From the IMG/VR virus record IMGVR_UViG_2513237361_000013: 36,955 bases of DNA; one strand, written 5' to 3'. Below, one piece after another: positions 20,054-36,955 of this stretch. The DNA is from a virus (taxonomy: Duplodnaviria > Heunggongvirae > Uroviricota > Caudoviricetes). The first letter of the stretch is position 1; the number at the start of each line of letters is the position of its first letter. Made by a program: the position numbers and the translations under genes. The notes below the pieces were generated by a model. It searched no databases and had not been told where the DNA came from. It saw nothing but the letters and a program-made list of their open reading frames with translations.

Positions 20054-20515
20054 CTATGGCTTTTTTATCGTATCCTGCTTCTGCTGCTCTTTACCCTGGG
20101 CGATGCTGGCTGCTTCTGCAAGGATCTGCCAGTACAAATCTGGATTCTGCTTAAGCAGCGCGATCCCTCGTTCTGCCGTATATTCCAGTGCAACCTCAAC
20201 ACCATTAACCAGTTCACCAACCCCTTTCCAGTCTTTCAGCAGATAACGAGCGGCATTATCAATGAGTAAATCATCAACAGAATCCACCTCGGAAACCTTT
20301 GAAATATCAAACTCCTTCGTTCCGACGTGCAAACTGGCATCCATTTTCTCAATGTGGCGACGGATTAATGCATTACGGGAGCGATACTGATCGTTATCGC
20401 TGCTTGCCACCAACAGTTTTAACCCGTCTACAGGTTTTAAGTCCTTCATTGGCGTAAACCAGCGTTCTCCACCAATGAGAATTTTCTGATTAAGAATAAA
20501 CATCCATAACCTCAT
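20054..20515 (-). CDS. tail assembly chaperone (gpG-like)
   Basis: 153 aa, acidic, in the position between the major tail protein and the tape measure. An A-AAA-AAG heptamer lies immediately before its stop. Confidence 0.6.
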   Translation of the reverse strand: MRLWMFILNQKILIGGERWFTPMKDLKPVDGLKLLVASSDNDQYRSRNALIRRHIEKMDASLHVGTKEFDISKVSEVDSVDDLLIDNAARYLLKDWKGVGELVNGVEVALEYTAERGIALLKQNPDLYWQILAEAASIAQGKEQQKQDTIKKP

Positions 20516-20563
20516 TCAATGCGTCCCCCTGTAGGGCAGTACCACAGGAGGAATAACGGAAAA

Positions 20564-21526
20564 TCAACTAATCGCCTCAGCACTGGCTTTTGCGATCACG
20601 GCAGCCGGGGAATTTTTTTTTCTGGTTATCGTAGGTGCTTCATCTGCTGCGGTAATGCTCAATTGAACCTGGATAATGTCGCTATTACCCCCATCAGGCC
20701 ATTCACCTGACACCTGAACCTTCGGGAAACTGAAAGTGTATGCCCCCTCTCCATTCGAAAGCGTGAAGCTGAACGGAACTGTTTCTCCAGTCAGTGTTTT
20801 ACTCCAGATTTCCCACGCGGCTTTAGACCATGAAAGCGTCACCGTACCGGACGGTGTAAAAGTAGTCGGAATATTTGCTCCTGCATAAGGCGAGCCAGTC
20901 CCGATACAACGCTGTGTCTGGAGTTTGTTATCGAACTGAATATCAAAACTGTCGATACAAAAACCGTTACCTCCGGCAACACCATTCAGGCTTACTGCTG
21001 AAACCTCCTTAAACGAATAACGTAGCTTTCCTGCACTATCCACAGGTTCGCCTTTGATAAAATTCGTATCATCGGCCTTTGATTCCCAGTCCAGTCCGGC
21101 AAAGGTTACGGTCGCTGTAATATCGCCGTCGTTAGGGATCTGCATTTTCCATGAGCCAACCTGCGCTCCTCTGACGACAGAGGCAATTCCGACATCGGAC
21201 GCATAGGTCGCCAGAGAAAATGTTATTCGCTCATTCCCCATTGTCAGAGAATCGCCTGACCATTCCGCGCCGAAACAGGATGCAAGAAAATCATCATGTT
21301 GACCCCAGCGAAATTTGGTACCAACATCACCGCCGACATCCACAGTGCCAGGCGTCGCCCCCTGAGCCATCCGGGAGCCACCAATCTCATTATTTTCGCC
21401 TTTATTCTGGGTGGGTTTTACTCCCCAGCTTGTGCGTTTTAATAAACTCCAGTCACCACTTGCTGGCGTAGTGCCTGCAACCGTCTCCCGGATAAATGCC
21501 GAGATAACCTTTGCACCTGAACTCAC
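20564..21526 (-). CDS. major tail (tube) protein
   Basis: 320 aa, Gly/Thr/Ser-rich beta-type sequence in the conserved position. Confidence 0.7.
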   Translation of the reverse strand: MSSGAKVISAFIRETVAGTTPASGDWSLLKRTSWGVKPTQNKGENNEIGGSRMAQGATPGTVDVGGDVGTKFRWGQHDDFLASCFGAEWSGDSLTMGNERITFSLATYASDVGIASVVRGAQVGSWKMQIPNDGDITATVTFAGLDWESKADDTNFIKGEPVDSAGKLRYSFKEVSAVSLNGVAGGNGFCIDSFDIQFDNKLQTQRCIGTGSPYAGANIPTTFTPSGTVTLSWSKAAWEIWSKTLTGETVPFSFTLSNGEGAYTFSFPKVQVSGEWPDGGNSDIIQVQLSITAADEAPTITRKKNSPAAVIAKASAEAIS

Positions 21527-21552
21527 AGGAGCCTCCTATGTCATTAATTGCG

Positions 21553-21945
21553 CTAGAGCGCGCGATATGGAATTTGAAGATTAAGCTGGAACCAGCCATT
21601 CTTTTCGCCAACGGCTATTGAGGAAACAGCCTGGTAACTGAGACGATCGTCATCCTGAAACTCAAACAGTTCCCGCAATTTATCGGCTGTCTCAGTAATG
21701 AGTTTTGAACCAGAACCTGCGGGGACAAATAACTGAATAATGATTATCCCCGTGCGATAAACAACCGGCCCCGCGCCAATTTCATTAACTCCAGCCTGCC
21801 CGGGAATATTACTTAACCGCGCCCAGATTAACTTACCGGAAGGATCGAACGTTGGCCCGTTCGGATACAATACATCTTTTCCATCAATAATCGTCTGTGC
21901 CGTCATTCTGGAAATAACCGTATTTCTGATTTCAGTAAACTTCAT
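21553..21945 (-). CDS. tail terminator/completion protein (gpU-like)
   Basis: 130 aa, assigned by position and size. Confidence 0.55.
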   Translation of the reverse strand: MKFTEIRNTVISRMTAQTIIDGKDVLYPNGPTFDPSGKLIWARLSNIPGQAGVNEIGAGPVVYRTGIIIIQLFVPAGSGSKLITETADKLRELFEFQDDDRLSYQAVSSIAVGEKNGWFQLNLQIPYRAL

Positions 21946-22322
21946 TTGTAAGCCTGTAAAACACCATGAAAAGCGTTGGCATACACGCCAGTTGGCGCTT
22001 GTTGTGAATGACCGTTTTCAAGAGCCTCTGCATAAGGAAGGTTATTCTGGATATAAATAACCCCGTAATTTGCAGCTTTCGAAATAACCCCGATCCCACG
22101 CTGAACAGCAATCGTACCATTCGGATCCACGTTATCAGATATACCAAAATCGGGATGCTGTAACGACACCAGGTTGTTATTTCTGAAACGTCCGGTATCA
22201 ACCGGAGCAGCAATATCAATAACAGTAAGAATCTGCATAGCGATGTAGCGAATCTTCAGCCCTACATCTTCCTCAATCATCCCGGCAAATATTGACGGTT
22301 CTATATCCCATGCCTTTGCCAT
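21942..22322 (-). CDS. head-tail joining protein (HK97 gp10-like)
   Basis: 126 aa; overlaps the downstream gene by 4 nt and abuts the upstream gene. Assigned by position. Confidence 0.55.
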   Translation of the reverse strand: MAKAWDIEPSIFAGMIEEDVGLKIRYIAMQILTVIDIAAPVDTGRFRNNNLVSLQHPDFGISDNVDPNGTIAVQRGIGVISKAANYGVIYIQNNLPYAEALENGHSQQAPTGVYANAFHGVLQAYK

Positions 22323-23102
22323 TTACGCTCTCCTTAACTGGATAGAGTAAACTGATGCTGAAGGATCTACACTTGCTGTAATTACCTCGTATCGTTGTAA
22401 CTGCCTTGATACAGGATCATAAATCTCAATAATATGGTCGACAGCTGGTTTATCCGTAACCTCGCATACCAGAGCGGTTAATTTAAGGTCACCATGCAAA
22501 ATATTAATCCCATCAATTCTGCCCAGCTTATAACGTGTCAACACGCCTCGCCCGGTATAGATTGCGGTGGATTCGCCGCCAGTTTCCGTCACAGGATCCC
22601 AGTGCCGGTGCGTAACGTAAGAACCAGAAAAATCACTCACGGCGTCCGCTAAATCCTCATCAAAAGCAGCGGCAACCTCTGACTGAATCTCTTCACGAAG
22701 CCCCATTATCCCCCCCCTCACAACCCTGACTTGTGAGCGACTAAGTCCGTACGGTTTCAGCAGTGCTATCGCAAGCTGTAAATCGGGTTCAAGCAATGCA
22801 GTGCTGTTTGCTGGCAACTCAGAAAATGATTTCGATACACTGACCCCGTCAGCCGACACGGCTTTACTGATAACAACGCCAGAATCATTTTTCTGCTGAA
22901 ACAACTTACCGAATGAGGCAATTCTGGCTGCATATGCTCCCGCAAGTTTTACCTCTTCCGGAATACGGGATGGGTTAATTTTCAGGTTGAAGCCATTAAG
23001 CCAGGCATTAGCCATTAAAACAGCTTTATTTTTAGCGTTCTCACTCGTCCAGGCGTTCCCAAACGCATTATCAACGTCATCACAGGTCACGTAAGTGATC
23101 AT
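22323..23102 (-). CDS. head-tail connector/adaptor protein (two-domain)
   Basis: 259 aa; the N-terminal part resembles gp6-like connector proteins. Lies between capsid and tail genes. Confidence 0.6.
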   Translation of the reverse strand: MITYVTCDDVDNAFGNAWTSENAKNKAVLMANAWLNGFNLKINPSRIPEEVKLAGAYAARIASFGKLFQQKNDSGVVISKAVSADGVSVSKSFSELPANSTALLEPDLQLAIALLKPYGLSRSQVRVVRGGIMGLREEIQSEVAAAFDEDLADAVSDFSGSYVTHRHWDPVTETGGESTAIYTGRGVLTRYKLGRIDGINILHGDLKLTALVCEVTDKPAVDHIIEIYDPVSRQLQRYEVITASVDPSASVYSIQLRRA

Positions 23103-23105
23103 GTG

Positions 23106-23282
23106 TTACTCCTGAGTTTTCCAGCCCATAGCCTTCCAGTTGTCAACTTCATCAGGATGAACATTAGCGATAGTTGGTGCGCCGGGAAACATCTGATAAT
23201 CGGTCACCATAACCACTAACTCAATTTGCGTTTTTTGTGCGGCTTCACGCTGTGCTCTTTGCTCTTTAGTTAATCCGGCCAT
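23106..23282 (-). CDS. small hypothetical protein (possible head accessory)
   Basis: 58-codon ORF not in the supplied track (MAGLTKEQRAQREAAQKTQIELVVMVTDYQ...), with GGGGGG 3 nt upstream of the ATG. It fills the gap between capsid and connector genes. Confidence 0.3.
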   Translation of the reverse strand: MAGLTKEQRAQREAAQKTQIELVVMVTDYQMFPGAPTIANVHPDEVDNWKAMGWKTQE

Positions 23283-23292
23283 ATGCCCCCCA

Positions 23293-23314
23293 TTAAAAAT
23301 GGGGCCGAAGCCCC
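23293..23314 (-). terminator. intrinsic terminator downstream of major capsid gene
   Basis: GGGGC / GCCCC stem (23301-23314) with a 4-nt loop, followed on the minus strand by ATTTTTAAT, 11 nt after the capsid stop. Confidence 0.5.
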
Positions 23315-23324
23315 GTTTGAATGT

Positions 23325-24464
23325 TTAACCAAGAATCAGACAACCATGTGCCGGCTTCACTGATGAAACACCCCATGCCAGTCCAACTTCATAGCGCACC
23401 TGGCGATACTGACGATACAGTGCAATCTGGAACGTAATCCCTGAAATCGGGTCCGTAACATTCATTACATCATCAGCATTATCGCCACCTTCCGGCATTG
23501 CCGGAGTACGGGATGCCAGCAGAAACGCGTTGCGATCAAACGCCATATTTGCAGTAAAGGCCCCAACAACTGTGATGGCAGTATCATCGGCCAGATCCTG
23601 ACGCAGTCCGGGCGCTGCAAGAGTAATCAGATTGCTGGTCGCTGCTGCCACAACATACTGATTCGGATCACCAGCGAACGTAACAATCTGACCTGCAGAA
23701 ATACTCCCCGAACCAGTATCAATGGAAATAAGAACATCGCCTTCTTTTTTCTCTCCATTCACGAGATAACCAGTTGCAGCAACCTTTGGCGCTCGTTTCA
23801 CACCTGCCGAACTGTGAATATTGAATCCCTCCAGACGCCCCAACACGCCCTCACGCAGTAGCTGTTCAGTGCCGGATTCATTCACTTTAAACAATACAGA
23901 CTGTTTTCCGCGCAAATTAGCAATGGCAGTGGAGCCAAGCACCATCTGCAGATCGGTTGTCGGTGCGCCGTTATCCTCCAGAACCTGACGAGCCAGAGCA
24001 GCATCAGAAAGATCATCTTTAACACCAAACGGCGTTGTCCCTGCGGTTCCCACGGCGCGGGAAGCACCGAAATACAACGCACCAAGATCAGCCTCAACCT
24101 CGTTTGCAAGGGCGCGAAAAGCCTGCTTGAACTGATCAGCCAGAATGGTGTTGTAAGTCCCTGAAGGGCCAAGAGCCAGTTGTTCTTCACCATTCCATTT
24201 AACCGGTGCCATTTTGGATTTAGTAATTTTTACATCAACAGTGCCAATATTTTGATCACCGGTATTCGGAGCTGACGGCCCCGGTACGATATCTTCGGTT
24301 TTCGCCTCAGGCGCAACTGGCGCGGTTACCGTCTGATCTTTTGCTGCGGCGTCAGCTTTTGCGTTTTTTGCTACCGCAGGGATAAAACCTACCTGCTCAC
24401 GGGATACAACATCCAGGGCGGTATAAATAGTCGGGATCAACCCGGTCAGGGTATTTCCAGCCAT
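23325..24464 (-). CDS. major capsid protein
   Basis: ORF 23325..24557; preferred start is ATG 24462-24464 (MAGNTLTGLIP) with AAGGA upstream. Assigned by size and position between scaffold and connector. Confidence 0.8.
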   Translation of the reverse strand: MAGNTLTGLIPTIYTALDVVSREQVGFIPAVAKNAKADAAAKDQTVTAPVAPEAKTEDIVPGPSAPNTGDQNIGTVDVKITKSKMAPVKWNGEEQLALGPSGTYNTILADQFKQAFRALANEVEADLGALYFGASRAVGTAGTTPFGVKDDLSDAALARQVLEDNGAPTTDLQMVLGSTAIANLRGKQSVLFKVNESGTEQLLREGVLGRLEGFNIHSSAGVKRAPKVAATGYLVNGEKKEGDVLISIDTGSGSISAGQIVTFAGDPNQYVVAAATSNLITLAAPGLRQDLADDTAITVVGAFTANMAFDRNAFLLASRTPAMPEGGDNADDVMNVTDPISGITFQIALYRQYRQVRYEVGLAWGVSSVKPAHGCLILG

Positions 24465-24562
24465 AATTAAATATTCCTTAAAAATTTGCGTAATTGTGAA
24501 TAGATGGAGTAATGAGCTATCCAGCCCTGACACCAGCTCCCATCCGGAAGCTGACAAATGTG

Positions 24563-25399
24563 TTAATCAACGATTGTGATACCGTCTTTCAATGCGTTTT
24601 GCTTACCTGCAACATCCAGTGCATCAAAAGCAGAGCGTTTCATCGTTTTCTGACCAATATCATGCTGTGTCGGACGGGAGCCGCCGCCATTGTTGCCACT
24701 GGCTTTCAGGATGTAGTCTTTCTGAGGGTAATTTTCGACAAGGAACTCCAGCGCCTCATCAAACTGCGCCAGTTCGCCAGGCTTCGCGCGGGAATAAATT
24801 TTGTTGCCGGAAGCGTCATAAGCAACGATCCTCCCTTCTTCCACTTTGAATGCCTGCCCGAAGCGGGCTTGTAATAAATCTGCCGGGATCGCAATTTTAT
24901 CGGCAATATATTTTGAACCCGCAAAACTACCGCCAATCATAGAATCGTAAAGCTGCTTCTCCAGCATCTGAGAGCGTTGCTTTTCTTCATCTAATTGCTG
25001 CTGAAAATTTTTCGTAATTTCTGCCTTAACCTGGTCAACCTGTCCCGCATCGAGCAGCTTTTTCTGGTCGATTTTTGACAGCATTTCCAGTGCCTCGATC
25101 GCCTTCTTCGGGTCTTCGATAGCGGCAAACTTAGCCAGTTTTTCCTCTGCAGCTTCTTTAGCCAGGCGATGATTTTTTGCCTCGCCATTAAGCTCTGTAA
25201 TTTTTTTTGTCGCCAGCGGTGCATCGAAGCCAATTTCTTTACCATCGTCGTGCACATAAACTGGCAGGCCAGCAGTATCAATTTCTGCGTATTGTTTTCC
25301 GTTAATCTCGACCGTTTTCAGTTTCATATTAGTACCTGGTTTAAGTCTTCCGACAGTTACGCTGCTCACCATCCGGATCGCAGCAATAAAAAAGGCCAC
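24563..25399 (-). CDS. capsid scaffolding protein (start uncertain, possibly ATG at 25327)
   Basis: Coiled-coil, charged sequence (EAKNHRLAKEAAEEKLAKFAAIEDPKKAIEALEMLSKIDQKKL) immediately upstream of the capsid gene. Confidence 0.6.
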   Translation of the reverse strand: MAFFIAAIRMVSSVTVGRLKPGTNMKLKTVEINGKQYAEIDTAGLPVYVHDDGKEIGFDAPLATKKITELNGEAKNHRLAKEAAEEKLAKFAAIEDPKKAIEALEMLSKIDQKKLLDAGQVDQVKAEITKNFQQQLDEEKQRSQMLEKQLYDSMIGGSFAGSKYIADKIAIPADLLQARFGQAFKVEEGRIVAYDASGNKIYSRAKPGELAQFDEALEFLVENYPQKDYILKASGNNGGGSRPTQHDIGQKTMKRSAFDALDVAGKQNALKDGITIVD

Positions 25400-25431
25400 C
25401 CGAAGGTAGCCTGTTGTAATAAATGATTTAT

Positions 25432-26547
25432 TTAAATCCCTGCTTTTCTGAATACCTGTGCATCACGCTCACGGAGCTGCTTCAGCGTCAGCCATTCGCC
25501 TTTATCGGTGTAAAATTCATCTGGCGACATACCACCATCCCGAATCAGCTTTGCTCGGGTTTCCCCCACAATCTGTTTTTGTCTGGTGTAAGGCTGACGC
25601 AAAAACCATTCCCTGTAGGTTGTATCTCCGGCCACCACGCCATCCATGCTGGCCCGCTCAGCCGGGGAAATATCGCGAACATCAATACCCAGTTCCTTCG
25701 CTGATTTCAGAATGAACGTTTCCGTTGAGCGGCAGCAGAAATGAATTTTTCCCGGCCCCTGCAAATAAGGCACGCTGTGATCTACAGGTTTATTATTCAG
25801 CGTATATTTGAGGCGATCCCTGATTCGACATTGTGGCGTAGTACGATTATCAAGCGTTGATAACCATTGCTTACCCTTAATCAAATCATTATTCGCGCTG
25901 GCAAAACTCTCACGGGCAGTAGCAGCAAGATGTCCAACCGCTGTTTTTGCAATGCTGGCCGCATTAGCCCGGCTCATCTGCAATGCACCATCCTGAAATC
26001 CCTTACTGACATGTCCCCGAATTTTTCTTGCGATCTGCTCATTGGTATCCCCCAGCAAAAAACCCTGACGCACTGTATTTGTTATGCGTCTGAGCCGATC
26101 CGCCTCAAGATCTGAGGCCCACTCACTGAGCAGTCGTCCCTGGAATGGTCGCGCCATTGCAGCGGCATAAAGTGCATCAGGAGAGATACCAACCAGAGGG
26201 TGAACATCAGCAACAAAATCAGGTAGCATAGAATCAAACAGACTTAACTGATAACCAGCCTCATAAATTGCCAGCTCGTTCAGCTCTCCGGAGAGACTGG
26301 TAAACATGCTGTTAATAGCAGTGCGGTTAACCTTTCTGACGCTCGCCAGAAGTGACTCCAGGCGCTTAACGGTAAAATTACCTGGATCGAGGCTGTCCAG
26401 TGCTATCAGCAGGCGAGCAGTAAGTTCCGCATCGCTGTCATTCAGTATTTTCACCATTCTGGCAGCCACGCCAGTGCTATAGCGGGATATCCAGACTGCA
26501 TGAGCAATTGATTCATCACGCAGCCGTTCATTCACGGTTTGCATCAT
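25432..26547 (-). CDS. head morphogenesis protein (SPP1 gp7 / Mu F-like minor capsid protein)
   Basis: 371 aa immediately after the portal gene, overlapping it by 20 nt. Assigned by position and family resemblance. Confidence 0.75.
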   Translation of the reverse strand: MMQTVNERLRDESIAHAVWISRYSTGVAARMVKILNDSDAELTARLLIALDSLDPGNFTVKRLESLLASVRKVNRTAINSMFTSLSGELNELAIYEAGYQLSLFDSMLPDFVADVHPLVGISPDALYAAAMARPFQGRLLSEWASDLEADRLRRITNTVRQGFLLGDTNEQIARKIRGHVSKGFQDGALQMSRANAASIAKTAVGHLAATARESFASANNDLIKGKQWLSTLDNRTTPQCRIRDRLKYTLNNKPVDHSVPYLQGPGKIHFCCRSTETFILKSAKELGIDVRDISPAERASMDGVVAGDTTYREWFLRQPYTRQKQIVGETRAKLIRDGGMSPDEFYTDKGEWLTLKQLRERDAQVFRKAGI

Positions 26548-27934
26548 TGATTTCCATCAGCATTACACTCTGATTTTTTAATTCATCGATCACTTCCTCT
26601 GGACGGGAATCCTGATCGATAAATTTCAACGCCTGCAACACCCGAACCGCATCAATCTGACGTATATCACCGCCCTGACGCAATGACTGAACAGCCAGCG
26701 CGGAGGATGAGTCAAACACCTGGGCAGATACATCCAGTTCAGTGCGCACATCCACATTGCCACCGCAACTCTCTCCGATCCATTCCGCCATTATCTGGAG
26801 AATATTATCGAGGGCATCTTCGAGGGAGTTCGCCATTGTATAAAGCGGCGAGTTTTCCTGCATTCGCTCTTCATTAGTCTGATCAACAGATTTGGTGGAT
26901 GTATTTTCAGCACGCAGAAGTTTAGCGCCGGCATGACGCATCTGATTTTCCAGCTTCTCAAGTGATGTTTCGCCAGATTCTATCGCTGCGCCACTATGTT
27001 CAACATATTCGAGGCCATTTTTTGTTCTGTCCTCAAAAATCGTAGCGGTGGATGCACCAACCGTCAGTTCTTCATTCCTGTCCAGCCCGTAGGCCACCAG
27101 CAATGGAACGCGGGTAACATGAAGAATATTGTCCTGCTCGCTCTGGCTTTGCCAGTGCTTGATATTCAGCAAGCCAAGATTAAGCAATGGCGGTGTACCA
27201 CGCATAAATCCTGTTTTCTTCGTGTACAGTGTTACCAGAGGAATATCATCACGGCTGGTATTCCATGACTCATGAAGCGTCCAGACAGATTCGCCATTAG
27301 TGCCTTCGCTACGTCGATAAATTTCAACTCGACGGGGCATAATATGGCGGATCTGCTCCACCTTCTTCTGCCCGAAATCATCACCATCAATAATGATGAC
27401 CTCTTTTATACGCAAATCAGTGAGAACAACTTTCCCTTTTTCAACTTTCGATTTCCATCCAATAACCTGGCGTGGATTCAGCATCGTAACGTACGGACGA
27501 CCACCGGTCGCGTTTTCATCGGCTTTTGTCCGAATCTCTTTCATATCCGTTCGTGGATAGTCCACCAGCGCATGTGCCACACCATACTGAAATGCGAGGC
27601 TGAAAAATTGCTGCGCCCACACATCCAGTCGGCTCCCCTCCATGTCGATATTTTCTGCATATTCCCTGATTTTTGCCGGCGTTTCCTCACTCAATACTGT
27701 CGGCTCTGCAAATATGCGCCCAATATTTTGCTTGATGCTTTCTTCATACACAGGAAGTAGCGTAGCCACAGACAGGCGTTTTTTATAAGCGTCTTCATCT
27801 TCGTTAGGCCATTTTGGGAGATAATTTTCCCCCTGCCTGCGCATTTCAAGCGTACCGCCCATCAGTGCGTCGTTAATATCCCACGCCTCCAGCATATCGT
27901 TATAGTCGAGGTTGGGTGTTGATATATCAGCCAT
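26528..27934 (-). CDS. portal protein
   Basis: 468 aa directly downstream of the large terminase, with an acidic C-terminus. Confidence 0.85.
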   Translation of the reverse strand: MADISTPNLDYNDMLEAWDINDALMGGTLEMRRQGENYLPKWPNEDEDAYKKRLSVATLLPVYEESIKQNIGRIFAEPTVLSEETPAKIREYAENIDMEGSRLDVWAQQFFSLAFQYGVAHALVDYPRTDMKEIRTKADENATGGRPYVTMLNPRQVIGWKSKVEKGKVVLTDLRIKEVIIIDGDDFGQKKVEQIRHIMPRRVEIYRRSEGTNGESVWTLHESWNTSRDDIPLVTLYTKKTGFMRGTPPLLNLGLLNIKHWQSQSEQDNILHVTRVPLLVAYGLDRNEELTVGASTATIFEDRTKNGLEYVEHSGAAIESGETSLEKLENQMRHAGAKLLRAENTSTKSVDQTNEERMQENSPLYTMANSLEDALDNILQIMAEWIGESCGGNVDVRTELDVSAQVFDSSSALAVQSLRQGGDIRQIDAVRVLQALKFIDQDSRPEEVIDELKNQSVMLMEINDANRE

Positions 27935-27936
27935 AA

Positions 27937-29247
27937 TTAAATCCGAAGTGATGTGACTCTTCCGGTCGGTTTGACAATAGGGAATTGCTTAACGATGAAA
28001 TAACCTCCGGCATCATTCGGGTGATCATTGCCAGATTTTTTATCAGGCTCCCCCTTCTCATCCCAGACCTGTTGCTCCAGAGATTCGGCATATAACGGGC
28101 AACGCTTCACATTAACTTTATAGCGACGCTCACCATTGGCATTGCAGAACATTGCATTCATTGAGTTAACGCGATCTTTTACTGGCGGGTTCGAGCTGTT
28201 CACCACAACGTTAAAACCAGCCTGCTTAAGCTGGGCTATATCCGTCGTACTTGCGTTACTTGATTTTCTGGAATCCCCGGAAGCATCTGGATAAATATAA
28301 ATTTCCCTCACTTTCCGGTAATCATTCCCATCATACAGCCAGAAGCGTTCTTTAATGATGCGGATCATATCCGGCGTATCGTAGGCATTGATGATTTCAG
28401 TTACCGCACATGGAAGCCCCAAACGCAGCACATGGACGATTCCCGCCATCTTTCCAACGTTAAAATCCATCCCAATATAAATCGGCTCCCCTGGCTGCTC
28501 CACTTCTTCGCAATTATTCAGTTTCCGGTCAAACTGATGGTAAACAGTACCACTTGTCAGGTTAGTAAACTGTCCTCGAAGATAGGCTTTAATCAGCTCT
28601 GGAGGGTATGATTCAAGAAGCGAAGGAATGTAATCTGCTGGCAGGTTCTTTTCATTATCGAAAGTAGATGCCTGCACCAGACCATACAGTGAGGCCAGCT
28701 CTGTTTTTTCACGCACGGCTTTAACAAACTGCTCGTAGACAAATTTGAATCCTTCCGGCGTGGTTGTAACGTCAATACCGTTGCGAAGTCCATCAATCTT
28801 ATAACGCATACGTGCAATTATCTTGCGCCACGCCGTTCTGGCTTTTTCCTTCGGCAAAATGTCCAGTTCATCCACCAACGCATTACCAATTTTGAAACCG
28901 ACGATCGTTTGTGGCTTCTCCATCGATCTGCAGATAGTGGTTCCCCGATACTGGCGTCCGTAATAAAAGTGAACCTCTTTATTTCCCTCATTAATTTTTA
29001 CGTTCAATCCCCAGTCAGCAGCAACTTCTTCCACTGTAGGGTAAAAAATATCGCGAATTTGGGGATACGTTGGCGCAAAATATCCCTGATTTATACCTGG
29101 ATGCTCCCAAATCCCCTTGCATATGCCGCCACACCCAACCCATGTTTTGCCCGAGCCAAAACCAGCAATATAGGCTTTAAATTTATGGGGCATTGAAAGA
29201 AATCGCGCCTGAGGCACATTAAGCGTCGGAGAGATCATCTTCATCAC
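27937..29247 (-). CDS. terminase large subunit
   Basis: 436 aa with Walker A-like GFGSGKT near the N-terminus and a nuclease-type C-terminal region. Confidence 0.9.
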   Translation of the reverse strand: MMKMISPTLNVPQARFLSMPHKFKAYIAGFGSGKTWVGCGGICKGIWEHPGINQGYFAPTYPQIRDIFYPTVEEVAADWGLNVKINEGNKEVHFYYGRQYRGTTICRSMEKPQTIVGFKIGNALVDELDILPKEKARTAWRKIIARMRYKIDGLRNGIDVTTTPEGFKFVYEQFVKAVREKTELASLYGLVQASTFDNEKNLPADYIPSLLESYPPELIKAYLRGQFTNLTSGTVYHQFDRKLNNCEEVEQPGEPIYIGMDFNVGKMAGIVHVLRLGLPCAVTEIINAYDTPDMIRIIKERFWLYDGNDYRKVREIYIYPDASGDSRKSSNASTTDIAQLKQAGFNVVVNSSNPPVKDRVNSMNAMFCNANGERRYKVNVKRCPLYAESLEQQVWDEKGEPDKKSGNDHPNDAGGYFIVKQFPIVKPTGRVTSLRI

Positions 29248-30313
29248 TCCTTACTCTGGCATCAACCACATTAATATTGATCGCCACAGGCTGGGGATGT
29301 TCATTATCTTCCACCGTTTCGATCTCTTTGCGCAGCTTCTGGTTTTCCATTCTGCGCCGTTCAATTTCCAGTTCCTGTAGCCGTTTATCTGCACATAAAG
29401 CCCCGCCAGCAGAAAACAAACGCAACAATTCACGCCGGGCGGCAGCCTTATCCTCCAGCAGGATCTCAACGCCGAATTTTCCGAATTTTGCCCCTGCATA
29501 TAATTGCCGCGCATCCCCATCAAGCAGAGTGGTATCAGCCATATAAAGCTGTCCCGTTCCCTCACCGCAGCACTTCGGGCAGTCCGGATTGGGTATGGCG
29601 TTATCAACAAAGCCGAGGCCTCCATATTCCGGTTCGGGTTTGCCATCTCTGGAAGCCTGCGCCGCTGCCTTGTCGAATTCTGCTATATCGCGCCACTGGT
29701 AGAGATGATTCTCGCCCCAGCAATAACGGCAGTTAACACGGCGAAATTGTGCAAGCTGATTGGGGTCGGCCAGGACAATAGCCATCAACTGACTCACTAG
29801 TAAATCCAGGTCTGCGGTATAGCGTTTCTGGTACTGATTGCGGAAGTAGCTGATAGCGCGAAAAACCCTGGCATTTCTAAGCATACGACTGGCGTTGCTG
29901 TTAGCTGTCGCACCTTGCCCCTCATAACCGGCTAGTCGGTACGCCTCTGTCGGCTTTTTACCCTGAGCAACAAGCATCGCAAACTTAGCCTGCTGGTCAG
30001 AAATGCCGAATTCATCGGGACAGAACGAAAATTCCTCCGCGTCGCCCTCATTCAGGCCCGCATCGAATACTGGCTTTTTTTCCTGAGATTTTTCGTTCCG
30101 CTTTTGTGCAGTCTGCGCAGATTTTTTCTGCGCACTTTTTTGCGCAGTTTTGCACATTTCTGTCTGCGCATTTTTCGGAGTTTTTTTGATGTAACGACGG
30201 GCTGTTGCGTAATTCAGTCCCCTTGCTTCACACCATGCCACCGGAGATATACCGGAGCGGGTGTATTCAGCAATATACTCCTGCTGCAACGCCCCCCAGT
30301 CCGGTCTGCTCAT
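29219..30313 (-). CDS. terminase small subunit (P27-family-like) with N-terminal HTH and two CxxC motifs
   Basis: 364 aa. Core resembles P27-type TerS (QQAKFAMLVAQGKKPTEAYRLAGYEG...ANSNASRMLRNARV). N-terminal HTH-like VAWCEARGLNYATARRYI. CRYC and CPKCC motifs. Overlaps TerL start by 29 nt. Confidence 0.8.
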   Translation of the reverse strand: MSRPDWGALQQEYIAEYTRSGISPVAWCEARGLNYATARRYIKKTPKNAQTEMCKTAQKSAQKKSAQTAQKRNEKSQEKKPVFDAGLNEGDAEEFSFCPDEFGISDQQAKFAMLVAQGKKPTEAYRLAGYEGQGATANSNASRMLRNARVFRAISYFRNQYQKRYTADLDLLVSQLMAIVLADPNQLAQFRRVNCRYCWGENHLYQWRDIAEFDKAAAQASRDGKPEPEYGGLGFVDNAIPNPDCPKCCGEGTGQLYMADTTLLDGDARQLYAGAKFGKFGVEILLEDKAAARRELLRLFSAGGALCADKRLQELEIERRRMENQKLRKEIETVEDNEHPQPVAININVVDARVRSDEDDLSDA

Positions 30314-30316
30314 CAG

Positions 30317-30568
30317 TTAGTCCTGATTTTTATCCACCCTGAGTAGTTCGCGCAGAGCAAAGGCATCCCCTTTTCTGGCAAGCTTAAACAATGCCGCTCG
30401 TAACTCGGCTTCACCTTTCGCTCTGCCCTTACGGATGGCCGCATAAAAATCTGTCATTGCTTCCCGATTTTCTTTCAGTCGGTTCAGATCAACATCCAGA
30501 ACGTCAGCGATTTGTTGTGCAGTCATCCGGCACGCTGCCAGAGACTCGACTTTCGAATACGGAATCAT
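30317..30568 (-). CDS. small putative DNA-binding protein
   Basis: 83 aa, basic and helical (AAIRKGRAKGEAELRAALFKLARKGDAFALRELL), 3 nt upstream of TerS. Overlaps the upstream gene by 65 nt in another frame. Confidence 0.45.
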   Translation of the reverse strand: MIPYSKVESLAACRMTAQQIADVLDVDLNRLKENREAMTDFYAAIRKGRAKGEAELRAALFKLARKGDAFALRELLRVDKNQD

Positions 30569-31436
30569 TTGTCACCCCCATTGATATGCAGGGTGTCTTC
30601 TTCCTGTATTTTTCGTGAAGGATTTTTACTGCAGCGTTGTTCCAGGTGACCTGATGGTGAATGCGTTTATGGCTGGCACCCATCAGTGAGATTTTTACGC
30701 ACGACGGCGCATACATGACGGAGTAAAAACTTTTAACGTAGGTTCCGGAATCCAGATACAGCTCGGTCATTCCGCCGCTGTTTTTCTGCGTCTGTTTCTG
30801 CCCTAACTGGACAGCACCGATCGTCATAAACAATTCACCACAGCGACCGAGATTCGTGTACGTATTCACATCCTCGTTAATGCGCCCCATGAATGAGAAC
30901 GGTCGATCAACCGAACAGATAAAGCTGTTCATTGCCTTGCGTTTCACCCACGAAGCATGGCCGCCATTGTCACCAAGAAAATCCCCGCCCTGCGACATAG
31001 CGATGGAAAGAGCAGGTATTGATTCGTAGTACGCCAGCATTTCAGAAAGGATCGCATCCAGTTTCCTTATCGGAAAATAGGCCTGGTCATAGTTGCGATC
31101 CACCCGAAACTGGAACTCGTGATAATCATCATCGAGCTGAATGAAGTATTTACACCCGACCAGTTTTGCCAGGTCGAAACAGGCATTACGGGCGTAAAAA
31201 ATTGAGCGGCGGTCACAGAAATTATCGGCTTCGTCAAAACGACTGGCGATATCGGCTTTGGAAAACACCAGCACCTGTTCACCAAATTCAGCCATGTACT
31301 GATGCCGTGTCTTATCTTCATCATCAACAACGATAAAAATTTTCCCGGTATAGCCAGCACGACGCAACGTCCGGTAAGTCAGAACTTTGTCCGGTCGCCC
31401 GTGAGTCAGAATAAAGGCGCAAAAATCATCACGCAT
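30504..31436 (-). CDS. GT-A-fold glycosyltransferase-like protein (putative), translationally coupled to ParB-like gene
   Basis: Start at ATG 31434-31436 (MRDDFCAFILTHGRPDK), overlapping the ParB-like stop by 8 nt with GAGGAGGAGGAA as Shine-Dalgarno. Motifs FIVVDDEDK and IQLDDDYHEF (DxD-like). No transmembrane segment. Confidence 0.55.
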   Translation of the reverse strand: MRDDFCAFILTHGRPDKVLTYRTLRRAGYTGKIFIVVDDEDKTRHQYMAEFGEQVLVFSKADIASRFDEADNFCDRRSIFYARNACFDLAKLVGCKYFIQLDDDYHEFQFRVDRNYDQAYFPIRKLDAILSEMLAYYESIPALSIAMSQGGDFLGDNGGHASWVKRKAMNSFICSVDRPFSFMGRINEDVNTYTNLGRCGELFMTIGAVQLGQKQTQKNSGGMTELYLDSGTYVKSFYSVMYAPSCVKISLMGASHKRIHHQVTWNNAAVKILHEKYRKKTPCISMGVTNDSVFESRVSGSVPDDCTTNR

Positions 31437-32220
31437 ATTCCTCCTCCTCACCACCATGCATGATCTCCACCATGCGCTGCGTCATCCGGACAAATCCATT
31501 TTCAATAGCCTGCTGATAATCAATGATCACCAGCGCCGACTCCTCGAAAAAACACTGAATTTCAGAGGGGGCGTGAGCGTAATAGTCCGCAATTCTGCTG
31601 AAATTAAACACCGTGTGACGTTCTGCCGCACACAGGAGGAATTTCTCAATATCAGGCTCAAGGGACGCCGAACGTATCCGGCTGATCAGCTCCTGAGTTT
31701 TCGTATCGTCGTACAGTTCACTGATATCCGGTTTACCGCCCGACGGCTCATAAACAGGCGTATCAATTTTCGTCGTATACGGCTCCTCCTCATTTCCTGT
31801 ACCGGGCAAAACATCCGTCAACAGTTCATCAATTTCTGTCGGGATGAAGCCTGTCAGGGAGACATCAAAATCAGCATTGATTAGGTCCGACAGCTCCATC
31901 CGCAACAGATCTTCATCCCAGCCAGCATTCATCGGCAGGCGATTATCTGCCAGGCGGTACGCCTTTTTCTGCTCATCCGTCAGGCCAGACAGAACAATGA
32001 CCGGAACAGAATCCATTTTGAGCATTTCAGCCGCCATAACACGACCGTGACCCGCAATAATTTCGCCCTTTTCGTCAATCAGCACCGGATTAGTCCAGCC
32101 GAATTGCTTAATACTTTCTACCAGTTGTGCCACCTGCTCAGTACTGTGCGTCCTGGCGTTGTGCGCATACGGTGACAATTCTTGTAATGGGCGATAGACT
32201 ATCTTTAATTTCTCGCTCAT
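31429..32220 (-). CDS. ParB N-terminal-domain (ParB/Srx-fold) protein, phage-type
   Basis: 263 aa with YRPLQELSPYAHNARTHS...ESIKQFGWTNPVLID...IIAGHGRVMAA, typical of the ParB N-terminal nuclease/NTPase fold. Confidence 0.85.
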   Translation of the reverse strand: MSEKLKIVYRPLQELSPYAHNARTHSTEQVAQLVESIKQFGWTNPVLIDEKGEIIAGHGRVMAAEMLKMDSVPVIVLSGLTDEQKKAYRLADNRLPMNAGWDEDLLRMELSDLINADFDVSLTGFIPTEIDELLTDVLPGTGNEEEPYTTKIDTPVYEPSGGKPDISELYDDTKTQELISRIRSASLEPDIEKFLLCAAERHTVFNFSRIADYYAHAPSEIQCFFEESALVIIDYQQAIENGFVRMTQRMVEIMHGGEEEEYA

Positions 32221-32357
32221 ACAGCCTTGCTTTATGAATAAAACGCACCCCAGCAGCCAGTGCTACTGGGGACGGAGGTGTTGCTGGTAAAGTTAGGTAT
32301 TGGATCAATGAGTGAGTCAACATAATATTAAACTCACAATTATAAATCAGCCATATA

Positions 32358-33814
32358 TTAGGAGCGCCAAAAAAAACCTGAAAACAATATAATAACAGGA
32401 TAAATTTCAAGGCGACCAAGAATCATAGCTATGCACATTAAACATTTTGCAATGTCATTAAGTACTCCGAATGACGATGCAGTAGCCCCAAAACCTAATC
32501 CCATATTATTAATACATGCAGCCACTGTTGCAAATGATGTAAGAAAATCATATCCCATACCATTTAACACCAGTATAAAAAACACCGTAAAGAGAGTATA
32601 AAGAAAAAAGAAACTCCATACAGACCTCATTACACGATCTGTAACTATCTTCCCTCCTACATTTACACTCAACAACGCTCTGGGATGAGAAAGCTGATTT
32701 ATCTCGTGTTTGCTTTGTTTGAAAAGTATAAGAAATCGAAGTGACTTAATTCCACCACAAGTTGAACCTATACATCCCCCAAAGAAACTTGACAACAGCA
32801 AAAATACTATCGTGTGCGTGGGCCAACTTGCATAATCCTGCGTAGCTAAACCATTATCAGTGAGCATGGAGCTGGCAAGAAAAAACGAATGAATAAAACT
32901 TCCATGCAAGTCATACATACCTATATGCCAGACCTGGAAAGAGGTAACAATGATCACCCCTAAGGCTATTAACAGAAAGAAACGAAGTTCAATATCTCTG
33001 ATTAAAGGTTTTATCGTTTTCCTGCTAATAACAATATACCAAAGAGTGAAGTTGAAAGCCGATAGCAGGGAAAAAGAACCAGCCACCAGCTCAACCAAAT
33101 AGTTATTAAAATATCCGATACTCTCGCTATGAGTTGAGAAACCACCAAGCGAAACTGTGGAAATCCCGTGACAAATAGCATCAAACAAAGGCATTCCTGC
33201 AAGTCTATAACAGACAATACAAGCAATACCTAATAAAGAATAAGTTATCCACAGTGTCCGTGACGTATCGGCCAGGCGGGGAGTGAGTTTGTCATCCTTA
33301 AATGGCCCCGGCATTTCTGACTGATAAAGCTTTGCACCACCAATACCCAATAATGGCAATACAGCAACCGCCAGAACAATAACTCCTAAACCACCTATAA
33401 AATTTAACTGTGACCGATAGTACAAATATGCCCGAGGTAATGAACTAACATCATCAATTACAGTTGCTCCTGTTGTTGTTATTCCAGAAACCCCTTCAAA
33501 CAGAGCATCAATGAACGTTAAATTAAGTTCTGAGTCAATCCATAAAGGGAATGCACTAATAACAGAAAACAAAATCCAAAACATTACAATTATAATAAAC
33601 CCATCACGGGTACGTAATTGAATGCCAGATTTCTTAGTTGTATACCACGCTCCGCCACCAATGCAAAAAAAATAACGAAAGTTATAAAGAAAACGAACAG
33701 GCTTTTTTCTTTATAAAACAATGCTACAACCATTGGTGGCAACATTGAAAGACTATAGAGCCAAACCAGGAACCCACACATATGAGTAACAACTCTTACA
33801 TGAGATGTATTCAT
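32358..33814 (-). pseudogene. trkG: Trk potassium uptake protein TrkG (TrkH family), interrupted by -1 frameshift
   Basis: N-terminal ORF (33590..33832, MNTSHVRVVTHMCGFLVWLYSLSMLPP) and C-terminal ORF (32358..33584) are joined if the 8-A run at 33665-33672 had 9 bases; the alternate frame reads CIGGGAWYTTKKSGIQLRTRDGFIIIVMFWILF into the downstream ORF. AT-rich moron, as in the Rac prophage. Confidence 0.85.
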
Positions 33815-33951
33815 ATCTAAATATTCTTTCAATTATAACCACCTTGCTGCAATATTATGATTATACTGTATAAAATTTAACTCCTCTTAGATCTTACTTC
33901 ACTGTTCCTTATGAAACAATCATCAAAATGAATCATATTGTAGTTAAGATT

Positions 33952-34380
33952 TTACTTTAAACACTGCTCGGTTATGTATTGCTGAGCACCTTCAAGTTGG
34001 GCCTGCATCATTACCAGTCGTTCCCGGAGGGTGAAATAATCCCGTTCAGCGGTGTCTGCCAGTCGGGGGGAGGCTGCATTATCCACGCCGGAGGCGGTGG
34101 TGGCTTCACGCACTGACTGACAGACTGCTTTGATGTGCAACCGACGACGACCAGCGGCAACATCATCACGCAGAGCATCATTTTCAGCTTTCGCATCAGC
34201 TAACTCCTTCGTGTATTTTGCATCGAGCGCAGCAACATCACGCTGACGCATCTGCATGTCAGTAATTGCCGCGTTCGCCAGCTTCAGTTCTCTGGCATTT
34301 TTGTCGCGCTGTTCTTTGTAGGCGATGGCGTTATCACGGTAATGATTAACACCCCATGACAGGCAGACGACCGGTTCCAT
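33952..34380 (-). pseudogene. Rz: Rz i-spanin, N-terminally truncated (transmembrane segment and RBS lost)
   Basis: 142 aa, near-identical from memory to lambda Rz from CLSW(A/G)VNHYRDNA onward, but beginning MEPVV in place of the N-terminal transmembrane segment. No Shine-Dalgarno upstream. Confidence 0.7.
34011..34196 (-). CDS. Rz1: Rz1 o-spanin lipoprotein (embedded in Rz, alternative frame)
   Basis: 61 aa with lipobox VVGC and proline-rich [15 protein letters not shown], nested in the Rz frame. Confidence 0.85.
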
Positions 34381-34405
34381 TCAACAGTCATAAGGAGTTT
34401 CATTT

Positions 34406-34636
34406 ATGACAGTCAGTATTGTTTCACCTTCCGCAGCGACTGTAAAGCCCCGCCGTCATCCCCGTTTCAGACGCGAAGACATCCCCGCGCCGGAAATTGA
34501 CCCCGTACTGAAAGCCTTCGGGCGACACATAGCCCGGAGTTTTCACCGGGGGCGTGGTGTACACATCCCCGCCATGAAAAACACGGCCTTCGGGCAGGTG
34601 CTCCGCACACTCGAACTGAAACGCGCTTTTAACTGA
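34406..34636 (+). CDS. small basic hypothetical protein (first gene of plus-strand operon)
   Basis: 76 aa with AAGGAG 8 nt upstream of the ATG. Shares an IPxPEIDPVLK motif with the small ORF at 19748..20002. Confidence 0.5.
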   Translation: MTVSIVSPSAATVKPRRHPRFRREDIPAPEIDPVLKAFGRHIARSFHRGRGVHIPAMKNTAFGQVLRTLELKRAFN

Positions 34637-34687
34637 TGAGGTGAGCCGCCCCGCGAGGGGCGGCAACAGACGGAAGGAGAACATTTT

Positions 34688-36049
34688 ATGACATTAGCAG
34701 CAATCACCATGACCGCCCCGGAAGCCGCCAGTCCTGTGCAGATGTACCGCGCGACCTACTCACCGGATGATAACAAACTGCGCCTGTATGCCGCGTCACG
34801 TCTTGACCAGGAAACGTATAAAAAAGTGCATGATGCCGGTTTCCGCTGGGCACCCAAACAGGCGCTGTTTGTCGCGCCGGCCTGGACACCGGGCCGGGAA
34901 GACGTGCTCCTCTCACTTGCCGGAGAGATTGAGGATGAAGACAGCACGCTCGCTGAACGTCAGGAAGCACGGGCGGAGCGGTTTACCGGATACAGCGGAA
35001 AGCGGGCCAGTGAATCCGCACAGGCACTTGATGAAGTGGAAAGACTGGCCGCGATGATCCCGCCCGGTCAACCCATTCTTGTGGGGCATCACAGCGAACG
35101 CCGCGCCCGTCGTGATGCGCAGCGTATTGAAAACGGCATGAAACGTGCCGTGATGCTCTTTGAACGTGCGGAATACTGGGAAGAACGCGCGCGGTCGGCA
35201 CTGCTTCACGCGAAGTATAAAGAACGTCCGGACGTTCGCTGGCGTCGTATCAAAAAAATCGAAGCTGATTTGCGCAAGGCTGAAAAGACCATCGCACAGT
35301 CGCAGAAATATCTGACGATGTGGCGGGCTGAATCGCTGGATCTGAATATGGCAAAACTCATCAGCAGTCATGACCATATCAGCGCCTGTTTCCCGCTGGA
35401 TACGTATCCGCGCCCGGCAGAAAAAAGCCAGTATGAAGGAAGTCGATCGTTATGGTCGGCCCTGGATGATGACATCATCACCACGGAGCAGGCCCGCGAA
35501 ATTGCGATCCGCTGTCATGAACGGCAGATCCAGCGTCAGCAACGCTGGGTTAACCACTATCAGAACCGCCTGATCTATGAGCGTGCCATGCTGGACGAAA
35601 GCGGCGGCGTGGTTACCCGGACACAGGATTTTGAGCCGGGCGGACAGGTTTTCAGCCGGGGCGAGTGGCTGACCATCATCCGTGTGAACAAAAGCAACGG
35701 GGCGGTGAGTTCAGTCACAACGCCAAATTACAGTTTTCTCGGGTACAGCGGCACGATGAAAGTGACGCCCGATCGCATCACGGACTACAAAGCACCATCG
35801 GCAGAAGAGGCTGCCGTCGCCAGTCAGGCCGCGAAGCGTCCGCCGGTAGTCAACTATCCGGGGGAAGGTTTCCGGGAAATGACAAAGGCACAGTGGGCCG
35901 CCCTGCCCCGGGACTGTAAGGCCGTGCGCAGTGTGGCAGAAGCAGAAGACCACGGGGCATACCGCTACCGCCGCACAATGGACAATAATTTCCGCCTGGT
36001 GAATGTGTATATCACCGACATGAAAATCACGGAAATCCCACAGAAATAA
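34688..36049 (+). CDS. large conserved hypothetical protein (plasmid/phage-associated, DUF3560-like by recollection)
   Basis: 453-aa GC-rich ORF with a coherent charged/helical sequence and no internal stops. The family assignment is from memory only. Confidence 0.65.
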   Translation: MTLAAITMTAPEAASPVQMYRATYSPDDNKLRLYAASRLDQETYKKVHDAGFRWAPKQALFVAPAWTPGREDVLLSLAGEIEDEDSTLAERQEARAERFTGYSGKRASESAQALDEVERLAAMIPPGQPILVGHHSERRARRDAQRIENGMKRAVMLFERAEYWEERARSALLHAKYKERPDVRWRRIKKIEADLRKAEKTIAQSQKYLTMWRAESLDLNMAKLISSHDHISACFPLDTYPRPAEKSQYEGSRSLWSALDDDIITTEQAREIAIRCHERQIQRQQRWVNHYQNRLIYERAMLDESGGVVTRTQDFEPGGQVFSRGEWLTIIRVNKSNGAVSSVTTPNYSFLGYSGTMKVTPDRITDYKAPSAEEAAVASQAAKRPPVVNYPGEGFREMTKAQWAALPRDCKAVRSVAEAEDHGAYRYRRTMDNNFRLVNVYITDMKITEIPQK

Positions 36050-36096
36050 GGTATATCCCCCCGGGAAAATCCCCGGGGGATGACGGAGATAATGAC

Positions 36097-36660
36097 ATGC
36101 ACAGTCAGTTAAGAGAACGTATCCGGCTGATGCGCGCAAGGCTGGATAACGCCGCGCCGGTTGCTGAAATCCGGGCTGAATCTCAGCTTTTTGTGACTCC
36201 TGCCCCGGTCTGTGATCGCCTGGTGACGCTGGCGGAGATCAGCAACCGTGATCACATTCTGGAACCCTCTGCCGGCACCGGGGCCATACTGCGGGCGATT
36301 CGGGATACCGCACCGGGGGCCATGTGTGATGCGGTGGAGATTAACAGCGGGCTGGTCCGGTATCTGCGGGACAATTTTAACGGTGTCAGGGTACAGTGTT
36401 GCGACTTCATGGAATGGCAGCCGGTGCAGTATTACAGCCGGATTATCATGAATCCGCCGTTCAGTCACGGGCAGGATATCCGGCATATCCTGCGGGCTTT
36501 TTCCCTGTTGCGTCCGGGGGGCGTGCTGGTTGCCGTCTGTCTGAACGGGCCGCGCCAGCAGGAGAAGCTGTTACCGTTTTCTGACGTCCGCGAGGAGCTG
36601 CCACGCGGCACGTTTGCTTATACCAGTGTTCCGACGATGATTATTCGTCTGCGTGCCTGA
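36097..36660 (+). CDS. small class I SAM-dependent methyltransferase with NPPF motif
   Basis: 187 aa with motif I LEPSAGTGA and motif IV NPPF, typical of amino-group (N6-A/N4-C or RsmD-like) methyltransferases. Confidence 0.8.
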   Translation: MHSQLRERIRLMRARLDNAAPVAEIRAESQLFVTPAPVCDRLVTLAEISNRDHILEPSAGTGAILRAIRDTAPGAMCDAVEINSGLVRYLRDNFNGVRVQCCDFMEWQPVQYYSRIIMNPPFSHGQDIRHILRAFSLLRPGGVLVAVCLNGPRQQEKLLPFSDVREELPRGTFAYTSVPTMIIRLRA

Positions 36661-36666
36661 TGACGC

Positions 36667-36700
36667 CGGGCAGGCGGGAGGATAAATGCCCGTCTGCCCG
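36667..36700 (+). other. GC-rich 12-bp-stem hairpin immediately after methyltransferase stop
   Basis: CGGGCAGGCGGG (36667-36678) pairs with CCCGTCTGCCCG (36689-36700) with one mismatch and a 10-nt loop. No U-run follows. Confidence 0.4.
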
Positions 36701-36789
36701 CGCCGGGAAAAACCGCGCGCCGGTGGCGCTGAAAGGGGCCGCGCTGACGCGCCGCCCCTTCCATTACGCGGATATTCTGATGGGGACTT

Positions 36790-36932
36790 CTGTCTTTTCA
36801 GACCTGTCATTTGTCTGTTACTGATGATGTTGTTGTTCCTGCTACTGCTACTGTTCTTCTTTTTTCTGATGCTCTCATTACTGTTTGTTTTGTTGTTCTC
36901 CTGCTTATGCCTTTTCCGGGCGCTCTTTAAAA
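36790..36932 (+). repeat. A-poor (CTG/TTG/TTC)n-like low-complexity tract
   Basis: About 140 nt almost devoid of A on the plus strand. It reads as Leu/Phe/Met codon repeats in the frame of ORF 36686..36955. Confidence 0.5.
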
Positions 36933-36955
36933 ATCTGGATCAAGCTGAAAATTGA

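Follow-up and report, generated by a model that had tools for sequence, protein, structure and literature searches.

How does an operon of plasmid type come to stand against a truncated lysis gene at the end of a prophage, and what might that operon do? Both questions are raised by the right-hand part of the Caudoviricetes record IMGVR_UViG_2513237361_000013, a stretch of 36,955 nucleotides (nt) that we analyzed as a whole and refer to as the window. A preliminary description, made from the letters alone, had noticed a plus-strand operon at positions 34381-36660 that abuts a truncated Rz gene and appears to occupy the place of Q, holin and endolysin. Its three plus-strand open reading frames (ORFs) of 76, 453 and 187 amino acids (aa), the last with an NPPF motif, and their Shine-Dalgarno sites are present as described. 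The likeness to gene pairs of plasmid leading regions, which that description had pointed out, is also correct: the operon is a fragment of an IncF leading region and shows about 98% identity to its counterpart in more than 4,800 plasmids. Its position beside Rz, by comparison, does not hold as a biological feature, as the match to prophages ends with position 34371, that to plasmids begins with 34372, and the join is present in the source pseudomolecule only. The juxtaposition of Rz and plasmid DNA is almost certainly an assembly artefact, in which unrelated draft contigs, mostly bounded by repeats, were pasted end to end without Ns. Together with the role that we propose for the module in plasmids, this forms an explanation of the locus that we regard, as a whole, as very probable.

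Origin of the join beside Rz

The window is a mosaic of a Rac-like prophage reaching to 34371, a piece of an IncF plasmid (34372-36922) and an rrn spacer (36922-36955). The Rac-like lambdoid prophage (15286-34371) is 99.8% identical to that of E. coli E275a, and the match ends at 34371. A comparison with K-12 Rac gave 99.8% identity over 33900-34371, likewise ending exactly at 34371. The adjoining 2.55 kb on the plus strand (34372-36922), an IncF leading-region fragment carrying ydaB-ydbA-ydcA, show 97.7-98.5% identity to thousands of IncF plasmids. At the blunt join between the two (34371..34372), both prophage references carry on into the missing start of Rz (GATGCAGATAACC...), and the plasmids have unrelated DNA upstream of CGGTTCCATTCAAC; no overlap, insertion sequence (IS) element, att site, duplication or microhomology was found there. 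The last nucleotides of the window (36922-36955, plus strand) are the start of an rrn spacer and 23S leader with a boxA-like sequence (GCTCTTTAAAAATC...), which has many matches in every E. coli genome.

The prophage side ends in a remnant of Rz (33952-34371, minus strand; Pfam Phage_lysis, E 4e-53) that lacks the first 45 nt of the gene. In the Rz ORF as called (33952-34380, minus strand), the last 9 nt, including the ATG, come from plasmid-derived bases, and the start codon of the 'truncated Rz' is therefore fortuitous. The two ORFs do lie close together in the record, with 25 nt between this start (34380) and the first ATG of the module (34406). In E. coli E275a, Rz is intact (154 aa) and is directly followed by a GH24 endolysin and then a lambda-family holin, with no module, while neither holin (S) nor endolysin (R) is found in the window. 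This comparison with a relative runs, in spirit, against the proposal that the module stands in place of Q, holin and endolysin, and what suggested such a replacement is a blunt join between draft contigs. None of 5,426 complete E. coli genomes spans the join at 34371/34372, and none spans the second join at 36921/36922. Exact searches for the 41-nt junction found it in none of 185,579 species-representative genomes and neither in IMG/VR nor in JGI metagenomes, and an exact look-up of the chimeric Rz protein returned AEME01000001.1 as the only record.

AEME01000001.1 (assembly GCA_000208565.2) is the source of the window, a single whole-genome shotgun record of 4,809,826 bp that is labelled as a contig. 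The strain behind it is Escherichia sp. TW09308, a cryptic-clade isolate from freshwater (PMC3850674, PMC3466228). Rightward in this record, the remnant of the rrn spacer is followed by StyR-44, a complete 23S and a 5S, with no 16S (L004 4226-7456). About 95 nt past the 5S come tRNA-Arg and tRNA-Ser (argV-serV), csrA, alaS and recX, with the essential gene alaS split into 133 + 704 aa (L004 589-3220). A 23S-5S unit devoid of 16S, combined with the order argV-serV-csrA-alaS, is non-viable as a real chromosome. The record also differs from E275a by four 1-nt indels in 19 kb (19993, 20012, 22710 and 33671), three of which fall within homopolymer runs; the one at 33671 breaks trkG into ORFs of 408 aa and 80 aa. 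These indels, including the splits of trkG and alaS, are probably sequencing errors of the draft.

Two further abrupt joins are present within the window, at 8690/8691 and 15285/15286. Homology to the tail gene J ends at 8690, with the C-terminal part of J alone being kept, and the prophage picks up again at 15286, 29 nt inside gene K. The intervening 6.6 kb (8691-15285) are unrelated DNA and encode an AraC-type regulator, an IbrA-like 3'-phosphoadenosine-5'-phosphosulfate reductase/DUF3440 protein, an IbrB-like gene and a periplasmic binding protein. The J-I-K stretch that is lost here is typically repeated among lambdoid prophages, which fits more contig concatenation.

How the segments could have come together can be outlined as follows. 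In all likelihood, positions 34372-36922 were a separate contig in a short-read assembly of TW09308, derived from an F-like (IncF) plasmid, and were joined without a gap marker as the draft was merged into a single pseudomolecule of 4.8 Mb. The neighbours of this contig after pasting are a prophage contig ending in Rz on the left and a collapsed 23S-5S rRNA contig on the right, the right-hand pieces being the collapsed 23S-5S repeat and then a contig that stops at the first tRNA-Arg gene of a tandem set. On its right, the plasmid fragment breaks off 25-65 nt into a repeat of 430-600 bp that has 2-3 copies per leading region. The two ends of the prophage piece fall in K and Rz, genes typically common to lambdoid prophages, and the truncation point of Rz coincides with the contig end. 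The exact YdbA allele was found on contigs of just 2-5 kb in 30 of 57 collection blocks, so the module commonly assembles as a short contig alone. Leaving aside the source record, the longer contigs shown all carry a klcA-type antirestriction gene upstream of the module, and ssb downstream where the contig reaches that far; in one place an IS110-family transposase is found instead. Under contig concatenation, the apparent operon replacing Q-S-R is an artefact.

The alternative is a real junction, in which the Rac-like prophage of TW09308 took up a 2.55-kb piece of a leading region by illegitimate recombination and lost Q, S, R and the beginning of Rz, and the three genes now serve as a prophage cargo operon. 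Several observations speak for it and hence against an artefact. The deposited record is contiguous and labelled as a contig, its joins contain neither Ns nor a linker, and none of the three ORFs is interrupted. The nearest plasmid repeat ends about 200 nt upstream of the point where the plasmid fragment begins (34372), and no known repeat explains a break there. Moreover, the joins were judged at the level of the assembled record. K-12 Rac shows that genuine deletions ending in Rz happen: its pseudogene rzpR is 5'-truncated too and likewise lies beside rzoR and trkG. It differs in keeping 25 nt more of Rz before a real deletion joint to ydaW, and for this reason we rejected the K-12 rzpR deletion as the source of the truncation in the window. 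Capture by recombination would, on the other hand, have to accommodate the other end of the 2.55-kb piece, which is fused to an rrn spacer, a 16S-less 23S-5S unit and argV-csrA-alaS in a non-viable arrangement. It would also have to account for a join that recurs in no other genome or metagenome searched and that shows no microhomology, IS element or att site, for a module copy that arrived without its promoter, for two more abrupt joins within the same window, and for a record with indel errors, one of them in the essential alaS. We therefore consider a real junction very improbable and retain the pasting of draft contigs as the explanation of the locus.

Two features of the prophage side may be added. 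An ORF of 61 aa inside Rz (34011-34196, minus strand) with a lipobox-like 'VVVGC' is the Rz1/RzoR lipoprotein gene and the counterpart of rzoR of K-12 Rac. Between trkG and the terminase genes (30504-32220, minus strand), a ParB/Srx-like gene (263 aa) overlaps a gene with a Pfam TAGT (PF20691) match in the precomputed annotation of the source record; the two are a possible DNA-modification pair.

The ydaB-ydbA-ydcA module in plasmids

In IncF plasmids, the three genes of the fragment are known as ydaB, ydbA and ydcA (PMC10912980, PMC3438092). On the plus strand of the window, ydaB (34406-34636; name from PMC10912980) encodes a very basic protein of 76 aa (pI 11.9), ydbA (34688-36049) a DUF3560 protein of 453 aa (Pfam DUF3560, E 5e-37), and ydcA (36097-36660) a protein of 187 aa with EPSAGTG and NPPF motifs, a predicted minimal core of a gamma-class N6-adenine methyltransferase. 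A Shine-Dalgarno-like site precedes each of them. The module is carried at about 98% identity by at least 4,823 plasmid records and by 2,699 of the 5,426 complete E. coli genomes, with near-identical colinear copies in, among others, NZ_CP024864, NR1 and pEC571_3. It is already annotated in thousands of plasmids.

The leading-region modules of R100/NR1, pS88, pMccB17 and thousands of antimicrobial-resistance or virulence plasmids share gene order, spacing and intergenic hairpins with the window copy. In NZ_CP024864, NR1/R100, a Klebsiella IncF plasmid and others, the module is preceded by a klcA-type antirestriction cluster and followed by ssb-ParB-psiB-psiA-hok, all in one orientation. The window copy, by contrast, is flanked by Rz/trkG on one side and the rrn spacer on the other, and lacks the upstream Frpo-type repeat, klcA and the ssb neighbour. 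These flanks and the repeat are missing because the copy is a contig fragment, and the different flanks are no evidence against its identity.

The repeat in which the fragment breaks off can still be recognized. Positions 36857-36922 (plus strand) are the first ~66 nt of the Frpo/ssi-type direct repeat (430-600 bp) that precedes ssb, and they match two repeat copies in NZ_CP024864. Copies were located in NR1 (L008 8050-8478 and 11218-11805) and in a further leading region (L001 8255-8795, 11570-12111 and 19594-20190). The transferred strand of the upstream NR1 repeat (L008 8050-8478) can form an imperfect hairpin of ~300 nt (fold z = -10.4), at the centre of which lies the palindrome noted for pMccB17 (PMC10912980). 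The NR1 repeat shares 94% identity with the sequence that lies ahead of ssb in F, where the single-strand promoter Frpo2 has been placed (PMC12672017). Classic F itself has no ydaB-ydbA-ydcA, and its antirestriction cluster runs straight to the repeat and ssb. Compared with F, NR1 has one extra unit that consists of a repeat copy plus the module, so that the module is bracketed by direct repeats. This bracketing suggests that the module is gained or lost by recombination between them.

The fragment in the window begins 34 nt ahead of the ydaB ATG and is thus without the upstream Frpo-type repeat. A promoter inside the Rz remnant had been considered earlier; no sigma-70-like site was found on the plus strand near the junction, and the native Frpo-type promoter lies upstream of the part that was kept. 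An AAGGAG stands 8 nt ahead of the ydaB ATG, enclosed by GTCATAA (34387-34393) and TTATGAC (34404-34410). This 7-bp inverted repeat, to which the preliminary description had drawn attention, is real but amounts to no more than chance, as 24 inverted repeats of 7 nt or longer occur within 2.6 kb and the Klebsiella-type copy does not retain this one; we rejected it as a regulatory element. On the plus strand, a perfect GC-rich hairpin without a T-run (GCCGCCCC/GGGGCGGC; 34645-34664) lies between ydaB and ydbA, and another GC-rich hairpin (ATCCCCCCGGGA/TCCCCGGGGGAT; 36055-36081) between ydbA and ydcA. GC-rich hairpins without T-runs also follow ydcA (36667-36700 and 36730-36763), and every intergenic space of the module has one.

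Between the E. coli-type and the Klebsiella-type module (compared for the methyltransferase at 36097-36660 vs L015 3907-4470), amino acid identity is 59% for the methyltransferase, 76% for YdbA and 80% for YdaB. The faster divergence of the methyltransferase might reflect changing specificity or relaxed constraint. Substitutions in ydaB are distributed over the codon positions as 11:10:30 and are biased toward the third; ydaB is a real gene. YdaB shows no clear homology; a Pfam scan gave a weak HU-CCDC81 match below the cut-off (E 7e-4). As a conserved third partner of YdbA and YdcA it was rejected, having no similarity to the 74-aa ORF upstream of a fused relative.

YdbA and YdcA as a possible split methyltransferase

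Relatives of YdbA were collected in a full HMMER scan, which found 3,899, and a distant set was defined as the 133 listed representatives with less than 70% identity. In 97 of these 133 (73%), a YdcA-like methyltransferase domain forms the C-terminal part of the same polypeptide, and the median length of these proteins is 675 aa. Residues 19-451 of YdbA match the N-terminal ~430 aa of the fusions at 45-55% identity, and YdcA matches their C-terminal ~190 aa, reaching 41% identity to the C-termini of the fused relatives P0132 and P0137 (E 5e-36 and 2e-38). The split between ydbA and ydcA falls at a Pro/Ala-rich linker of the fusions. Given that 73% of the distant relatives are fused, the two genes are, by homology, the split form of what most relatives encode as one protein of ~670 aa. 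The fused DUF3560-methyltransferase proteins (~650-700 aa) occur in proteobacterial conjugative plasmids and integrative and conjugative elements, where they are encoded beside a type IV coupling protein (T4CP/TrwB) and a TrwC relaxase, or beside a MOB relaxase. While colinear with YdbA-YdcA, they differ in being one polypeptide instead of two genes and in having a small upstream ORF that is not homologous to YdaB. This quantified fusion evidence linking ydbA and ydcA is one new addition of the present analysis.

YdcA contains motif I (EPSAGTG, residues 56-62) ahead of motif IV (NPPF, 119-122), and both are invariant in 85 relatives. Its profile matches include PADLOC mad2 (3e-20), Type II methyltransferases and the DNA-methyltransferase domains of polyvalent proteins in PHROG (1e-26 to 2e-33); the N6_N4_Mtase family (PF01555) gave no match in the Pfam scan. 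Among solved structures, M.TaqI is the best match by sequence (E 1e-6), with the alignment covering M.TaqI residues ~22-122 only. An AlphaFold2 model of YdcA (predicted local distance difference test, pLDDT, 90) again has M.TaqI as its best Foldseek match (E 1e-10, template-modeling score 0.70, 26% identity), the fold corresponding to the N-terminal domain of M.TaqI. On sequence and model together, YdcA is predicted to be an M.TaqI-like gamma-class N6-adenine catalytic core. The two share motif order and the catalytic NPPF/Y motif; M.TaqI, however, has a C-terminal DNA-recognition domain of ~180 aa, whereas YdcA ends with its catalytic domain and lacks a domain for target recognition.

YdbA was also modelled with confidence (pLDDT 89, predicted template-modeling score 0.76). 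It has two basic parts, the DUF3560 helical segment (pI 10.2) and a C-terminal beta-rich part (pI 9.3), many of its arginines are invariant, and a GHHSE-R-R motif at residues 133-141 is nearly so. Searches of its sequence against PDB sequences, NCBIfam and PADLOC found nothing. The DUF3560 family has been listed among the uncharacterized families enriched in leading regions, with the structural note 'methyltransferase domain protein' (PMC11541004, supplementary file 3). Relatives of YdbA were also seen on nine IMG/VR contigs (L023-L031; eight with 44-49% identity together with a partial match at 84%, and one with 34%), and DUF3560 is contained in PHROG families 6744 and 17519; the YdbA family may thus occur in phages or phage-plasmids as well.

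Leading-region genes of this kind are generally regarded as serving anti-restriction or establishment (PMC11541004). With an Frpo-type repeat upstream of the module, early expression from the entering strand is a reasonable inference, and the repeat would allow transcription from the incoming single strand just after conjugative entry. YdbA could then contribute nucleic-acid binding or target choice through its basic DUF3560 helical region and its basic C-terminal beta domains, and a complex of YdbA and YdcA could place protective methylation on the incoming plasmid DNA and blunt restriction in the recipient. We slightly favour this division of labour, with YdbA supplying nucleic-acid binding or target selection to a complex that methylates entering plasmid DNA and thereby blunts recipient restriction. 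The fuller proposal, a two-component N6-adenine methyltransferase that is produced from the single strand as it enters and marks the DNA of the plasmid ahead of restriction enzymes, is put forward more tentatively, at a little under even chances.

The known precedents for such an activity are M.EcoGIX and M.BceJIII, single-strand-specific orphan N6-methyladenine methyltransferases of leading regions, of which M.EcoGIX has been shown to protect at entry (PMC7736820). They resemble YdcA as orphan adenine methyltransferases of the early-transferred region that are oriented as ssb and psiB. M.EcoGIX, however, is a single polypeptide of the beta class with a DPPY motif, whereas YdcA belongs by prediction to the gamma class and appears to need a separate partner. 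The homologue of M.EcoGIX in IncF plasmids is a separate PF01555 ORF of 224-227 aa ('DNA methylase') that lies further upstream; YdbA-YdcA is distinct from M.EcoGIX, the characterized leading-region methylase.

Several points weigh against a two-component DNA methyltransferase. The activity, the complex and the substrate are deduced from homology and gene context, the YdbA model has no informative fold match among solved PDB structures, and the module is dispensable for conjugation as such, since F has none. Furthermore, the RNA adenine methyltransferases TrmN, KsgA/Dim1 and Erm nearly equal M.TaqI by fold in Foldseek. YdcA could accordingly be read as an RNA (rRNA or tRNA adenine) or a protein (HemK-like glutamine) methyltransferase, in which case the module would modify host translation components during establishment. 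Such an activity would agree with weak Pfam and NCBIfam matches to RrnaAD, Erm, KsgA and PrmC, with the Foldseek ranking of TrmN, Dim1/KsgA and ErmE close after M.TaqI, and with the name rsmA that some annotation pipelines assign (PMC10912980). These family matches, however, are all far under the curated cut-offs (for Erm, 34 bits vs 212), and the strongest profile matches are DNA methyltransferases. As M.TaqI is best among solved structures by sequence as well as by fold, and the gene setting is one of antirestriction genes in conjugative elements, an RNA or protein substrate seems quite unlikely to us.

It is somewhat less unlikely, though still improbable, that YdbA acts alone, as a hydrolase or an anti-defence effector like the domains of polyvalent proteins, and that fusion to the methyltransferase merely co-delivers two independent activities. 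DUF3560 does occur without a methyltransferase domain and in other architectures, such as with LPD29 in a protein of 1,394 aa, and some PHROG families contain it on its own. The near-invariant GHHSE-R-R motif, the word 'hydrolase' in many database names and the faster divergence of the methyltransferase between lineages (59% vs 76% for YdbA) could be read in the same direction. Against independent activities stand the colinear fusions in 73% of the distant representatives, divided exactly at the linker, the missing target-recognition domain of YdcA, and the joint carriage of the two genes by more than 4,800 plasmids; nor does any domain match in Pfam, NCBIfam or PDB back the name 'hydrolase'. 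A joint action of YdbA and YdcA on DNA is therefore the reading that we carry forward.

Implications for annotation and plasmid entry

The locus is a warning case, as draft contigs pasted into pseudomolecules can produce convincing but false gene neighbourhoods. Here, a plasmid anti-defence module seems to replace the lysis and late-control genes of a prophage, and a chance ATG makes the cut Rz look gene-like. The module itself is real and very common, with many resistance plasmids among the more than 4,800 that carry it, and it belongs to one of the larger uncharacterized gene families of leading regions. The fusion evidence leads to a testable hypothesis that bears on how resistance plasmids evade restriction at entry, namely that the two genes encode a split adenine methylase for DNA whose partner subunit is of a new kind. 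If this is true, IncF leading regions would encode two protective methylases that differ in mechanism, the M.EcoGIX type and YdbA-YdcA, the latter carried by about half of the complete E. coli genomes.

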